NCBI GenBank assembly: GCA_023474835.1
Contig: JAMCXQ010000034.1
Coordinates: 1-34,718, forward strand
Source of the DNA: Patescibacteria group bacterium
Lineage (GTDB): Bacteria > Patescibacteriota > Minisyncoccia > Minisyncoccales > CG1-02-41-26
Length of the DNA: 34,718 bases
Reading direction: 5' to 3'
A program made the translations under genes and the position numbers. Of the stretch, positions 3,994 through 30,882 are shown piece after piece. Under the pieces are notes generated by a model. The model worked only from the letters and a program-made list of their open reading frames with translations, did not search any database and was not told where the DNA came from. Position 1 is the first letter of the stretch; every line of letters starts with the position of its first letter.

Positions 3994-4078
3994 GGTGGGG
4001 TACGAAAGTGGCTTAATCGAACGGCCTGGAGCGCCGTGCCCCGTAAGGGGCTCGTGGGTTCGAATCCCACCCCCACCG
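3994..4078 (+). tRNA. tRNA-Ser(GGA)
   Basis: Acceptor GGTGGGG/CCCCACC; anticodon arm ACGGC-CTGGAGC-GCCGT; long variable arm GCCCC-GTAA-GGGGC; T arm GTGGG-TTCGAAT-CCCAC; G discriminator; CCA not encoded. Confidence 0.95.
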
Positions 4079-4223
4079 CAAAATAATGAGCGAAGCGAAT
4101 ATATTTTGCGAGAGGGGAGCGAGCCAACTGCTTGGCTCGCGAAGGGATTCGAAGGGCGAGCCATGCCCCGTCCCAAACGGGGCCGCGAGCCCAGGGCGTA
4201 AATCCCATCCCCACCGCAGAATA
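4079..4223. repeat. Structured mini-element ending in a duplicated tRNA-Ser 3' end
   Basis: 4063-4085 is repeated at 4201-4223 (21/23 identical). Internal hairpins: GCGAGCCAA-CTGC-TTGGCTCGC and GCCCCG-TCCCAAA-CGGGGC. Confidence 0.75.
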
Positions 4224-5888: not shown

Positions 5889-6278
5889 ATGGATTTTTCT
5901 TTGTCAAAAAGAATTCAAAAAGCCCCAAAACCTGTCAGCGACAGCCAGCCGGCTGGAAAGCCGGACTTCCAAAGGCCGCGGGTTTCAAAAAACATTTTTG
6001 GCGTGAGCGGTTTTGCTTCGCGGCTGAAAATGCAAAAAAGTTTGGCAAAATCATACAGCGAAATAAAAAAAGTGCCGGTTTGGAAAATTGACAAAACCAA
6101 AGAACAGGAAATTTTTCAGCAGTTTTTCCCCGATAAAACCCAGAAACCGTTTTTCAGGAAGCCGGATGTTGCGGAAAACCTGCGTTCGTGGAGTAAAGAA
6201 AAAATCTGGGCAAAAGGCAGGCAAAAAGCCGACCTGATTGAAAAAATCCAAATCCTCAAAAAAGCCAGCGGAGTTTAA
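5889..6278 (+). CDS. Hypothetical basic protein
   Basis: ORF starting 4 nt after the pyrG stop; no recognisable motif. Confidence 0.55.
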   Translation: MDFSLSKRIQKAPKPVSDSQPAGKPDFQRPRVSKNIFGVSGFASRLKMQKSLAKSYSEIKKVPVWKIDKTKEQEIFQQFFPDKTQKPFFRKPDVAENLRSWSKEKIWAKGRQKADLIEKIQILKKASGV

Positions 6279-6319
6279 GCGTTTCAAGCTGCGCCTTAAG
6301 GCGCAGCTTGAAACGCTTA
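6276..6319. repeat. Perfect 44-bp palindrome
   Basis: TAAGCGTTTCAAGCTGCGCCTT|AAGGCGCAGCTTGAAACGCTTA, with no spacer and no mismatch. Confidence 0.95.
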
Positions 6320-27113: not shown

Positions 27114-27144
27114 ATTAAAAGTGTCAATTTGCTCTGTACAATTC

Positions 27145-27360
27145 AATATTCCGCGGTGGGTCAAAGCCAACTGCTTGGCTTTGACGGCCGATTTAGGAAA
27201 TCGTCCCCGATTTCCGTTAAAAATCGGCCAGGCACATTATATTAAGCCAACTGCTTGGCTTTGACGGCCGATTTAGGAAATCGTCCCCGATTTCCGTTAA
27301 AAATCGGCCAGGCACATTATATTAAGCCAACCGCATAGTTCATTTGAAATAAAATAGTTT
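27145..27360. repeat. Structured element starting with a duplicated tRNA-Asn 5' end and containing an exact 80-bp tandem duplication
   Basis: AATATTCCGCGGTGG at 27145-27159 and 27361-27375. 80-bp unit at 27164-27243 and 27244-27323, plus 8 bp. Hairpin GTCAAAGCCAA-CTGC-TTGGCTTTGAC. Confidence 0.9.
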
Positions 27361-27365
27361 AATAT

Positions 27366-27437
27366 TCCGCGGTGGCGCAATGGTAGCGCGAGGGACTGTT
27401 AATCCCCAGGTTGTAGGTTCGAATCCTACCCGCGGAG
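27366..27437 (+). tRNA. tRNA-Asn(GTT)
   Basis: Acceptor TCCGCGG/CCGCGGA; D stem GCGC/GCGC; anticodon loop CT-GTT-AA; T arm GTAGG-TTCGAAT-CCTAC; G discriminator; CCA not encoded. Confidence 0.96.
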
Positions 27438-27483
27438 CAAACGTGCCGACTTCGGCAAATATCCACCACATAATACATAAAGC

Positions 27484-27574: not shown

Positions 27575-28273
27575 ATGAAATTAAGAGATGTAAGAAGCCT
27601 CCATTTTATTCCTGCGCATAAAACTGCCTTCCTTGAGCATCTTTTTAAGGATGTTCAAACAAGGCCAGATGCGATTGTTTTTGATTTGGAAGATAGTGTT
27701 AAGCCTGAAGCCAAAGACCTAGCCAGAGAAAATCTGATTAAAGTTATTAAAGAGAACAAGGATAAATTAAAGGATTATGTAATTATAATTAGACCAAACA
27801 GAGAAGGCACTCCTTATTATAAAAAGGATGTAGAAGCTATTCAGTTACTTAATCCTGATGCCGTTCTACTGCCAAAAGTTGAGGATAGAAAAGAAATAAA
27901 AAGAGCAAGAAAGCAATATAAAAACAAGTCTTTAATAGTAGCAATTGAAACTCTTGTTGGGATAGAAAATATAGATAGCATATTAAGTAATTTAACCGAA
28001 TTTGATGCTGTGGTTGCTGGATATGAAGATTTGTCTGCTGATCTAAAAATTGAAAGGCCAAAAGACCTGTCATTAACAAACCCGCTTACCTATTTAATTT
28101 TTGAAGTTTATATAAGTGCTAGAAAGCACAGTGTTATTATTTTTGACGCTGTTTGCAGGTATTTTAAACATGAGGACTTACCTATTTTAGATAGGGAGTG
28201 TGATTTTACTTCTAACTTACGATTTGCTGGAAAATTTTCGATCCATCCCAATCAAATTAGTTTGATAGGGTAA
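27575..28273 (+). pseudogene. HpcH/HpaI aldolase / citrate lyase beta (CitE-like) protein, 3' end cut by IS
   Basis: RSLHFIPA, DAIVFDLEDSV, LLPKVE, IETLVG, GYEDLSADL and GKFSIHPNQI. The stop codon lies inside the IS inverted repeat. Confidence 0.75.
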
Positions 28274-29121
28274 AGTTCAATTTTCGTACCAAAAATTCTT
28301 CAAAAATGTTGATTTTAAGCCCGAAACCCGCTCTTTGAAATTCAAATTTCTGTGATTGTATTTCCAGACATATTCTCCAAGGAAGAGAGGCAGTTTTTCT
28401 CGTCTAATTCCACCCTTGGCCGATAGCTTTCTTTTCAGATATCCCCAGAAACCTTCAAGGCCGTTAATATGGTGCCCTTTGCCGTCAGTGTATTCTTTTT
28501 TACCGTGGTCAACCAATCGGTGAACATATCCTTTAGCGGCTAATCCAGTGTAAGCCCTCCAACCATCAGAGCAAACCACCGAACCCTTAATGACTTGTTT
28601 TTCAATGAGTGGTTCCAAATCCTTGGCTTCCGTGTCCTTGACTATTTCAGCCCAGACCTTTCCTTCGCGGCACAAAATGCCAAACACCGGCTGCTTGATT
28701 GTTCCAAACCCCCGTCTGTTCTTGCTGTATTTACAACGTTCCGACAATCTCCTGTTTTTCATCTGACCGCCCAAGTATGTTTCGTCTACTTCCACTATTC
28801 CAGAAAAAACATCAGGCACCTCTTTAGCCATCGCTATCCTTAACAGAGTTAAAATTTTCAACAGTTTGTATTTGGAAATTTCAACTCTGGCAAGAATGGT
28901 ATCGGTGGAATGTTCCAACAAAAATTCTTCAATGATATTTTTTAAGATTGCTGGCTTTAATTTAAATGGATGATTTTGAAAAGTGAAGACCGAACGGCAT
29001 TGTTTACATTTTAACCGATTATCGTTTAATTGCCAAAAGTCCTTTCCTTTACAGGTTTTGCATTTGATGACCATACCTAATTTCATTGTAGTGTATTAGG
29101 TACGATTTTCAAACTTTACCC
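28268..29121 (-). mobile_element. IS1595-family insertion sequence (IS1016-like), ~850 bp
   Basis: Imperfect terminal IRs GGGTAAAGTTcaatttTCGTACC (28268-28290) and GGGTAAAGTTtgaaaaTCGTACC (reverse complement of 29099-29121) enclose the transposase. No 8-bp target duplication is visible. Confidence 0.88.
28277..29086 (-). CDS. IS1595-family DDE transposase
   Basis: N-terminal CKTC/CKQC zinc ribbon; VEVDETYLGG, KQPVFG, VCSDGWRAY and HINGLEGFW. Confidence 0.93.
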   Translation of the reverse strand: MKLGMVIKCKTCKGKDFWQLNDNRLKCKQCRSVFTFQNHPFKLKPAILKNIIEEFLLEHSTDTILARVEISKYKLLKILTLLRIAMAKEVPDVFSGIVEVDETYLGGQMKNRRLSERCKYSKNRRGFGTIKQPVFGILCREGKVWAEIVKDTEAKDLEPLIEKQVIKGSVVCSDGWRAYTGLAAKGYVHRLVDHGKKEYTDGKGHHINGLEGFWGYLKRKLSAKGGIRREKLPLFLGEYVWKYNHRNLNFKERVSGLKSTFLKNFWYEN

Positions 29122-29139
29122 TATAATTCTATTTAAAAT

Positions 29140-29211: not shown

Positions 29212-29249
29212 AAACACATAAAAGAAAAAGTAATTTGTAATTCAATTAA

Positions 29250-29484
29250 AAGCGTTGACGGGGAGAATGGGCCCCCGAGCTGAACGGTGAAACTTGAAAA
29301 AGCGCGTAGCCGTCTCCGGAAGCTGTCCGTTATCATACAGCAGCCGATGTTAGTCGGCGCGACAAGGTTTGGCCTGCCATCAGGCGGGCTGAATAAAACA
29401 AGGTGGCACCACGTTTCTGTTTCTACAGAACCGTCCTTGTAAGATTTTTGCGATGTGCAGAAATTTTACAAGGGCGGTTTTTTT
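29250..29484 (+). promoter_or_regulatory. T-box riboswitch, Trp specificity, transcriptional
   Basis: T-box AAGGTGGCACCACG (29400-29413) pairs with CGTCCTTGT (29432-29440). Competing terminator 29431-29477 plus T7. Stem II, IIA/B pseudoknot and Stem III are recognisable. UGG specifier at 29268-29270; the downstream gene is trpD-like. Confidence 0.88.
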
Positions 29485-29553: not shown

Positions 29554-30882
29554 ATGTACACCACAGACATTAAACTGGATGGCAAATATTTGGATAAACA
29601 TTTAATGATGGAGTCGTTGGCAGTTCAGGAATACAGCTTTTCAAATGAAGCTAGAGCTCATCAGGATTTGCTGCAAAACGCTGATCCAATGATTTTGGCA
29701 AAGATTGCTGAATCTGTTAAAAATGGAGGACTATCCTTTGAGGATTCCTTTGTCGGTATGCTGTTGGTTTTGGCGGCAACTAATAATCATATCCGCTTGG
29801 CTATTTTCCCCAAAATGACTTTCCCTGAAGCTATTTCAAAGGGAACGGGATTTTTGACAATAATGGCTCAAAAAGAGTTTTCTTACGGATTAACTCCGGA
29901 AGAAATCGCAGGTATGGTTGGGGCGGCAACGCTTGACATCATATTTAGATGCCCCGCATTTGAGGTGTTAGAAACATGCGGGATGGGCGGAGATAGAGGT
30001 TTTGGAACCAAAAAAGTAAAAACTATCAATGTTTCAACGTTAAGCGCTATCGTGCTTGCCGCAATGGGTTATGAGGTATTCAAACATGGTTCTCATGGGA
30101 ATACCACAAAAATAGGTTCAGTGGATATCCCTGTCAACTTCGGGGCAAAAATATGCCTTCATTCAAAAAATGCGATTGTGGATTTATTTGAAGAAACGGG
30201 CTTTTGGTTCAGCGATGCGCATAGTGTAAAAACTATCCACTATTTGTCTCATCTTCTGATGATTGAGACAATAAATCATATTATTGGTCCGATGACAATA
30301 CCTCTTGCCCACGGAGCTCGCTTGTTAAAGGTTATGGGGGTTAACCATCACGTTTCTCCTGAAACTATAGCAAGAGCATACACGATTTTGCATAAAAAGG
30401 GCTTTCTAAATCTTGGCGGGGTTATTGTTTTAGCTGGAGTAGACACCGTGCCGAACGAACAGCAATTGCAGGATGGTAGATGGGCTCAAAAACATAGTTT
30501 TTTGGATGAAGTTTCCCCAATTGCCACTGTCGCAAGTTTAGCTACAGGTGAAAATTTTGTGGGCAATTTCTTGTTTACCGATGATAGTTTTGGCTGTGGG
30601 GTATTAGCGCCTGAGAAATTAAAAATAAAGAACGAAGAGCAGGATTTGATGCGGGCGAATGAACTCGCCATAAGAGGAGAAGATGAAATTCTAACAGATT
30701 ATTTGGCAAGAAATGCCGCTATTGGATTAATGTTACTGAAGGGTAACGTCAACGGAGAGGATATCAATAATCTGCCGGCGTTTTACAAAGAATGCCTACA
30801 GAGCATTAAATCCGGCGATGCGTTTGAGAAGTTACTGGAATACATTGAAGCGTCTGGCGGCTCTTTCAGAAGTTGGCTTTAA
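29554..30882 (+). CDS. trpD: Divergent anthranilate phosphoribosyltransferase (TrpD-like) with N-terminal extension
   Basis: ETCGMGGD, KTINVST, KHGSHG..TKIGSVD and LDEVS correspond to TrpD DxCGTGGD, TFNIST, KHGN and DE motifs. AGGAG SD and Trp T-box lie upstream. Confidence 0.75.
   Translation: MYTTDIKLDGKYLDKHLMMESLAVQEYSFSNEARAHQDLLQNADPMILAKIAESVKNGGLSFEDSFVGMLLVLAATNNHIRLAIFPKMTFPEAISKGTGFLTIMAQKEFSYGLTPEEIAGMVGAATLDIIFRCPAFEVLETCGMGGDRGFGTKKVKTINVSTLSAIVLAAMGYEVFKHGSHGNTTKIGSVDIPVNFGAKICLHSKNAIVDLFEETGFWFSDAHSVKTIHYLSHLLMIETINHIIGPMTIPLAHGARLLKVMGVNHHVSPETIARAYTILHKKGFLNLGGVIVLAGVDTVPNEQQLQDGRWAQKHSFLDEVSPIATVASLATGENFVGNFLFTDDSFGCGVLAPEKLKIKNEEQDLMRANELAIRGEDEILTDYLARNAAIGLMLLKGNVNGEDINNLPAFYKECLQSIKSGDAFEKLLEYIEASGGSFRSWL

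Follow-up and report, generated by a model that had tools for sequence, protein, structure and literature searches.

The gene for tRNA-Asn(GTT) occupies positions 27366–27438 on the forward strand of contig C20, a 34,718-nt stretch that was analysed as a whole and is called the window here. The genome comprises 647,082 bases in 35 contigs, has a G+C content of 44.5% and carries 43 tRNA genes. The tRNA-Asn gene is intact (Rfam tRNA, 70.4 bits). It begins within a 15-mer, AATATTCCGCGGTGG, at 27361–27375, which consists of the five nucleotides upstream of the gene and nt 1–10 of the tRNA. The same 15-mer is found 216 nt further upstream at 27145–27159, and no further copy is present in the genome. 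The duplication of the tRNA 5′ end reported in a preliminary description of this DNA is therefore an exact pair and unique. The distal copy is a 5′ stub of the gene and ends in GGTGG. Just upstream of it we found a match to a sigma-70-like promoter at 27115–27142 (+; TTAAAA, 16 nt, TACAAT), which is a consensus match only, with 3 sites in the region as compared to 1.2 in shuffled sequences.

The two copies of the 15-mer are separated by 201 nt of hairpins. The preliminary description had recognised the hairpins and treated the insert as one structure. The hairpins are as described, but the insert in fact contains two 80-nt units and the start of a third, in a perfect tandem repeat (80 nt × 2.1, 27164–27331) that had been overlooked. 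All parts lie on the forward strand. The first unit has a hairpin with an 11-bp stem and a CTGC loop (hp1, 27160–27185; GTCAAAGCCAA-CTGC-TTGGCTTTGAC). It is followed by a longer hairpin, in which an A / GTTAA internal loop separates an outer stem of 9 bp from an inner stem of 8 bp capped by a TCCC loop (hp2, 27186–27229; GGCCGATTT-A-GGAAATCG-TCCC-CGATTTCC-GTTAA-AAATCGGCC), and by a tail of AGGC and ACATTATATT (27230–27243). The second unit (27244–27323) is an exact copy of 27164–27243 and consists of hp1 lacking its outer 4 nt (27244–27265), hp2 (27266–27309) and the tail (27310–27323). The first 8 nt of a third unit (27324–27331) end the array. A spacer (27332–27360) leads to the intact gene and includes a TAAAAT hexamer (27350–27355) located 10 nt before the tRNA. 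This hexamer resembles the −10 box of relatives, also in its spacing; the promoter scan gave no −35 partner for it.

Among public sequencing runs, the locus was seen in two DNA runs of one study, as contigs only, and no RNA run is listed for it. One contig from run X1 holds a single 80-nt unit, skipping 80 nt between window positions 27163 and 27244, and another contig bridges the junction between units. As assemblers collapse exact repeats, the one-unit contig may be such a collapse, and we give it no weight as proof of polymorphism.

Some further features were noted along the way. In six relatives (L027–L032, in G003, G017, G016, G019, G033 and G034) the anticodon loop of tRNA-Asn is split by a group I intron (Rfam Intron_gpI, 42–99 bits, at or above the gathering score in four of the six), while the tRNA-Asn described here has no intron. 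We considered a group I intron remnant as the origin of the insert and rejected it, the relatives' intron being located in the anticodon loop and unrelated to the element. Elsewhere in the window there is a full-length DUF3800-V RNA at 8822–8917 (−; 74.3 bits against a gathering score of 37.4) and a match to the whole T-box leader model at 29246–29441 (+; 45.7 against a gathering score of 93) upstream of an ORF at 29554–30882. A pair of 49-nt inverted repeats, 71% complementary (28255–28303 and 29086–29134), surrounds a 269-aa ORF (28277–29086, −), and this unit could be insertion-sequence-like. The window also holds a perfect 22+22-nt palindrome lacking a spacer at 6276–6319.

Both hairpins of the unit are part of the minimum-free-energy fold, and one unit (27157–27235) is far more stable than expected (z = −7.4). 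Folded as DNA, the whole insert gives z = −9.3 relative to shuffles. The GCGGT/ACCGC pairing proposed to close the structure is present in the fold of 27140–27365, with 5 bp only.

A BLAST search with the flanks of tRNA genes against the genome returned the same architecture beside many tRNAs, often with quite different sequence. From 13 clear copies we built a covariance model, R1, with an RNAalifold consensus of 22 pairs, 13 of which show compensatory double changes among these copies. R1 finds 23 copies in this genome at E<0.01. In an alignment of 100 copies from 20 genomes, 97.8% of the modelled cells pair and 19 of the 22 pairs change on both sides. None of 500 shuffles scored as high and slid registers reached at most 57% pairing; the alignment was fitted to R1 itself, which somewhat favours the structure. 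The suggestion that the family is defined by its structure, with stems exchanged between copies, is thus borne out. The loops had also been thought to be conserved, and so they are within one subfamily of this genome; across the family, what persists is the geometry and the asymmetric internal loop of hp2, TTTAG / CGTTAA, which is nearly invariant.

The ends of the element could be defined from the 100 copies. On the left, a G-run (...TGG|G or ...GGG|G) precedes the element in every case. On the 3′ side of hp2 there is NGG, often a third hairpin of one of several unrelated types, and then (CT)ACAT(T). The latter marks the right end: it is present in copies with other tails as well, and the similarity between paralogues stops there. 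The two ends are not inverted copies of each other, i.e., there are no terminal inverted repeats. These ends and the variable length of the flanking repeat (10 to 36 nt) both speak against a classical MITE.

The distribution of the element is patchy. Of the 39 genomes and 28 genera of the taxonomic family, 19 and 12, respectively, gave R1 matches, with 1–21 copies per genome, whereas in an even sample of the order searched with stricter filters the element was found in 2 of 121 genomes, one of them the genome studied here. Copies on contigs C20 and C17 share a 76-nt stretch at 100% identity, which suggests recent spread. A tighter sequence pattern gave three matches in viral contigs, none of which fits R1, and no larger relatives. 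The same kind of search in metagenome contigs gave 98 matches; one of the 80 examined fits R1 and has no tRNA within 350 nt. No Rfam covariance model matches the element, and a scan of the whole window at E≤5 gave only tRNAs at these places. In those parts of the literature on hairpin, MITE and REP-type mobile elements at tRNA genes that were available to us, we found no description of it. To this extent the element appears to be undescribed, as had been thought possible. A possible link between a short stable mini-hairpin motif and the elements was dropped, as this motif is only weakly enriched near tRNAs (9 of 116). A different repeat of ~100–270 nt (L238, 645–920) occurs in some 70 places in G016 (74 matches).

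Copies are concentrated at tRNA genes. Within ~300 nt of a tRNA gene lie 21 of the 23 R1 copies of this genome, as compared to 3.8% of the genome that is this close, and 39 of 78 copies in the other 19 genomes, which agrees with the tie to tRNA genes first noticed at two genes in the window. The 14-mer GCCAACTGCTTGGC, common to the elements at tRNA-Asn and tRNA-Ser, occurs seven times in the 647-kb genome (expected ~0.002), each time 25–192 nt from a tRNA gene. Background frequency of this 14-mer, positions away from tRNAs or a lack of compensatory changes would have spoken against a family, and none of the three was observed. Of the two exceptions in this genome, one lies at the 3′ end of an ORF whose translated end reads as ruvA-like, and the other is hp1 alone. 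This hp1-like hairpin (G000, contig C14, 3642–3668) is flanked by an A-run and a T-run, lies between two genes and looks like a two-way terminator.

At least 12 tRNA species are occupied, and in this genome some 14 tRNA loci besides tRNA-Asn carry the element. Among the 100 copies, 23 are located upstream of a tRNA on the same strand, 11 just downstream on the same strand, and 7 otherwise near a tRNA. In another 19 cases the element is inverted and directly adjoins base 1 of the tRNA (11 at Lys, 7 at Arg and 1 at Glu); these tRNAs all begin with a GCCC-like sequence, and the opposite strand thus reads ...GGGC. No tRNA lies within 300 nt of the remaining 40, most of which also lack a repeat; some of the loci end at contig ends.

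Same-strand copies upstream of a tRNA are preceded by a copy of that tRNA's own 5′ part. An exact repeat of at least 12 nt of the 5′ flank was found downstream for 22 of the 100 copies, as compared to 7 of 100 in an upstream control, and by our reading the control matches are mostly copies inside tandem arrays. The right edge of the repeat is the entry point. In most cases this is the GG of the D-loop; other entry points are position 10 (tRNA-Asn in the window), position 7 (a tRNA-Met) and the anticodon TGG(G) of tRNA-Pro(TGG), where copies in two genera have repeats of 33–36 nt. The G-runs used for entry at tRNA genes correspond to unpaired parts of the cloverleaf, namely the D-loop GG, the junction after the acceptor stem and the anticodon loop of tRNA-Pro(TGG). 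The left edge lies 0–6 nt upstream of tRNA base 1, and farther upstream only within tandem arrays. Repeat length at tRNA sites varies from 10 to 36 nt. A non-tRNA insertion on contig C11 has a 13-nt repeat. On contig C15 and at the third unit on C17 the stub does not match the adjacent tRNA, which indicates that a stub and its element can end up beside a foreign tRNA.

Relatives carrying the site with and without the element show that this is an insertion, as the preliminary description had supposed. These comparisons were made within one genus, and the flanking DNA differs by 20–30%, so junctions outside the tRNA could not be defined base by base; for tRNA-Gln(CTG), G016 versus G156, the upstream DNA was too diverged to place them. 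The tRNA-Val(TAC) gene of G016 carries the element together with an 18–19-nt repeat of tRNA nt 1–18/19, while in the same neighbourhood of G155 and G154 the gene is uninterrupted. The tRNA-Pro(TGG) gene of G155 has the element after the anticodon and an exact 36-nt repeat that starts at tRNA nt 1, and G156 and G154 have the empty site. For both tRNA genes, the filled allele equals the empty allele plus the element plus a repeat from tRNA base 1 to the unpaired G-run. In G155, the ~90 nt of conserved DNA upstream of tRNA-Pro(TGG), with its TTGATA and TAAAAT hexamers, adjoins the distal stub and not the intact gene. This places the entry of the element inside the gene and makes the intact copy behind it the rebuilt one.

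No empty allele was found for the window's own tRNA-Asn site. By analogy with tRNA-Pro(TGG), where the distal stub is the copy next to the conserved ancestral upstream DNA, the promoter match at 27115–27142 is probably the ancestral tRNA-Asn promoter. The match and the analogy together point to the distal copy of AATATTCCGCGGTGG as the ancestral member of the pair.

We consider it likely that a small, non-autonomous mobile DNA element, one that splits tRNA genes and restores them in the process, gave rise to the tRNA-Asn insert. The element would have entered the gene after GGTGG (tRNA position 10), with a duplication that reaches from 5 nt before the gene as far as this position. The old promoter would now face a 10-nt tRNA stub, with a complete tRNA-Asn behind the element. 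Tandem duplication of the 80-nt core would have come later. The best promoter match being located just before the distal stub, the intact tRNA may be transcribed from the old promoter through the 216-nt insert and freed by RNase P; the TAAAAT hexamer at 27350 tempers this suggestion.

The strong conservation of structure by compensatory change could also be that of a functional RNA. The hp1-hp2 pair would then be a leader or trailer, cut free by RNase P or RNase Z, with a protein-binding or regulatory role, and the stub might act as a guide-like 5′ segment. The very stable fold (z = −7.4) and the nearly invariant TTTAG / CGTTAA internal loop would suit such an RNA, as would the placement of copies where the promoters and the processing of tRNAs would express and trim them. 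The orientation of the copies argues against this, since 34 lie on the same strand as the nearest tRNA and 26 on the opposite strand, and an opposite copy would produce the complementary RNA with different loops. So does the fate of the copies: 20 of the 39 genomes of the family have none and the copy number ranges from 1 to 21. At tRNA-Lys(CTT), G155 has an intact inverted copy, whose orthologue in G016 has decayed and was missed by R1, and G156 lacks it; such decay also suits a mobile element. Furthermore, one copy is located inside a Nudix-like reading frame, and Rfam has no match. We therefore regard a functional RNA as rather unlikely. The copy in the Nudix-like ORF (L040, 320–394; G020, contig C49) lies within the apparent Nudix box.

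RNA could alternatively be an intermediate of the insertion. The RNA of the element would be joined to, or copied beside, a tRNA fragment reaching from the mature 5′ end to a loop, and the chimera would be copied into DNA and recombined into the gene. tRNAs are cut into fragments at loops and junctions, the entry points lie in cloverleaf loops or junctions, and the repeat has tRNA nt 1 as its exact left edge in both of the independent filled/empty comparisons. Several other repeats, however, take in 3–6 nt upstream of the mature end, and a repeat is also present at a non-tRNA site. In addition, the reverse transcriptase domain RVT_1 has no match in G000, G020, G016 and G018, the four richest genomes (21, 16, 10 and 9 copies, respectively, in the family census; completeness 94, 90, 100 and 95%). 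It does have a match in 6 of the 19 element-bearing genomes. RNA-mediated insertion is thus quite improbable, and the mixed orientation and the missing RVT_1 in the four richest genomes favour single-stranded DNA over RNA.

For the mobile DNA element we favour, an enzyme acting in trans may recognise the hairpins as folded single-stranded DNA, and the tRNA gene may be hit while it is itself single-stranded and folded. We prefer this mode of recognition in view of the asymmetry of the internal loop, the occurrence of copies in both orientations and the location of entry points in loops; as to the enzyme, our confidence is low. To our knowledge, HUH single-strand transposons make no target repeat, and we know of no transposase that leaves repeats of 10–36 nt bounded by the first base of a gene. 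A live alternative for the origin of the repeat is template switching during replication across the folded tRNA gene, using GG microhomology.

Among the candidate enzymes are transposases of the Y1 type. This genome has two RAYT-like Y1_Tnp matches, on contigs C8 and C27. In NCBIfam they score best with the model of the REP-associated transposase, but do not reach its cut-off. One of the genes may be frameshifted and in the other the N-terminus is missing; each has hairpins of its own on its flanks, unrelated to the element. Intact homologues are present in G016 and G018. Of the 19 genomes with the element, 14 have a Y1 gene, and so do 7 of the 20 without it. This is a moderate co-occurrence among related genomes that are not independent samples, and G008 has seven copies of the element and no Y1 match. 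In the RAYT-like gene at L041 1204–1982 (G000, contig C8) the N-terminal part seems to be shifted in frame at a T-run, and a ~28-nt G5/C5 hairpin is located before, inside (in frame) and after this gene.

REP, BIME and REPIN sequences with their RAYT (Y1 HUH) transposases resemble the element in several respects: they are short, abundant hairpin repeats whose structure is kept, they form subfamilies and tandem clusters, and they coexist with Y1 genes. The element likewise consists of short imperfect palindromes in many copies with the structure kept. A RAYT gene is normally flanked by its own REPs, unlike the situation here, where none of 35 Y1 matches in the 14 genomes holding both has an R1 match within 5 kb. 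REP hairpins have a GTAG-type tetranucleotide alongside; hp1 follows TGG/GGG, and CTAC is found after the third hairpin in some subfamilies only. We know of no REP repeats that target tRNA genes or make target repeats.

Miniature derivatives of IS200/IS605 share with the element the lack of terminal inverted repeats, end-proximal hairpins with unpaired bases, and insertion right after a short motif, presumably into single-stranded DNA. They make no target repeat, in contrast to the 10–36 nt seen at tRNA genes and the 13 nt at one other site. As to a cognate TnpA/TnpB, this genome (94% complete) has the two Y1_Tnp matches described above, and no TnpB-type domain was found in it. In the element, hp1 abuts the target, which leaves no room for a guide segment.

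A tRNA piece repeated up to the end of the gene, with the tRNA left intact, is a hallmark of island and prophage integration, and the element shares with these the entry inside a tRNA gene and the repeat from the crossover to the gene end. The copies could then be scars of classical integrative elements, i.e., remnants of tyrosine-integrase islands or prophages that lost their interior. Such islands span kilobases and carry their own integrase gene; each targets a single tRNA and uses the 3′ part of its gene. The element is ~100–200 nt in length, has no gene, and repeats the 5′ part, not the 3′ part, of 12 or more tRNA species, where the same 75-nt hairpin pair, in places 100% identical, recurs at many different tRNAs. 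This genome does have one tyrosine recombinase (PF00589), encoded on another contig than the window, but it is Xer-like. Copies at non-tRNA sites and the viral contigs, with no larger relatives and none of three pattern matches fitting R1, also speak against scars, and we hold this explanation to be highly improbable. An integron attC site was rejected as well: the integron core site is of the GTTRRRY type, which GTTAAAA or GTTAAGA in hp2 does not fit, and the Xer-like recombinase scores 68 bits with the integron-integrase model, for which the cut-off is 265.

Two other systems were compared. Casposon and CRISPR-spacer integration yields long target duplications from two separate cuts, and some casposons enter the ends of tRNA genes; their duplications have a fixed length and depend on Cas1, whereas the repeat of the element varies in length. 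Mitochondrial double-hairpin elements are mobile two-hairpin units with conserved structure that lie in intergenic regions near tRNA genes. They differ in being organellar, and the descriptions available to us, on which this comparison is based, report no gene-restoring duplication.

The preliminary description had assigned a structure at the other tRNA gene of the window to the same family, inserting at either end of a tRNA. The tRNA-Ser(GGA) gene at 3994–4079 (+) is followed by an AT-rich spacer hairpin that recurs in relatives (4080–4109, +) and by an element at 4110–4220 (+; z = −4.9), which we call type B. It forms a tRNA-like Y, in which an acceptor-like stem closes hp1 (4119–4140) and a long arm. 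The two elements do share a hairpin core with different outer stems, as claimed (GTCAA/TTGAC at tRNA-Asn versus GCG/CGC at 4119–4140). The similarity of the TCCC and TCCCAAA loops, on the other hand, is weak, and the arm carrying the latter corresponds in alignment to tRNA-Ser's own variable arm. The two elements have no more than the 16-nt hp1 core in common, and the structure at 4080–4220 has a different architecture, so the idea of a single family inserting at either end is not supported.

We assign the tRNA-Ser element instead to a second family, whose members mostly follow tRNAs with a long arm (class II). It aligns lengthwise with tRNA-Ser itself, and its 3′ end (4201–4218) is an imperfect copy of the tRNA-Ser 3′ end, T-loop to 3′ end (4063–4080). 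Type B relatives are present in at least four genera, with a conserved spacer hairpin and with longer forms that carry a G+C-rich insert of ~100 nt. Long-arm tRNAs make up 10 of the 11 hosts identified (four Ser, five Leu, one of them by eye, and one Tyr); the remaining host is tRNA-Arg(CCG)-like, by eye. At a tRNA-Leu of G016, a type B insertion has a 19-nt repeat of the tRNA 3′ end and is absent in G155 and G154. The second family is a mirror of the first at the other end of the gene. In Rfam, seven type B loci gave tRNAs and weak chance matches only.

The repeats could reflect a mode of transposition that has not been described. A hairpin element of ~100 nt would find its target in the unpaired loops of a folded tRNA gene, or of the tRNA itself, and integrate after a G-run there. 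Structure, and not length, would set the extent of the duplication, from tRNA base 1 to the loop, and the split gene would thereby be rebuilt. The second family would mirror this from T-loop to 3′ end at mostly long-arm tRNAs. A host activity, or one of tRNA processing, could serve as the machinery in place of a classical transposase. We offer this tentatively, as a possible but doubtful extension of the mobile-element reading.

Taken together, the element is best read as a small hairpin mobile DNA that has the habit of splitting and rebuilding tRNA genes, and it forms a scattered, apparently undescribed family favouring these genes. tRNA genes are essential and mostly present in single copy in genomes of 0.5–1 Mb, and the element enters them repeatedly without killing them. 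How split tRNA genes survive is a testable question on a new insertion chemistry or repair route, and the rule that the repeat extends from the start of the gene to an unpaired G-run makes a sharp prediction for candidate mechanisms. The stubs and the long structured leaders are a possible source of error in the assembly of genomes of candidate phyla and in the annotation of their tRNAs, and a compact tRNA-homing element that leaves genes working may be of interest to builders of insertion tools.
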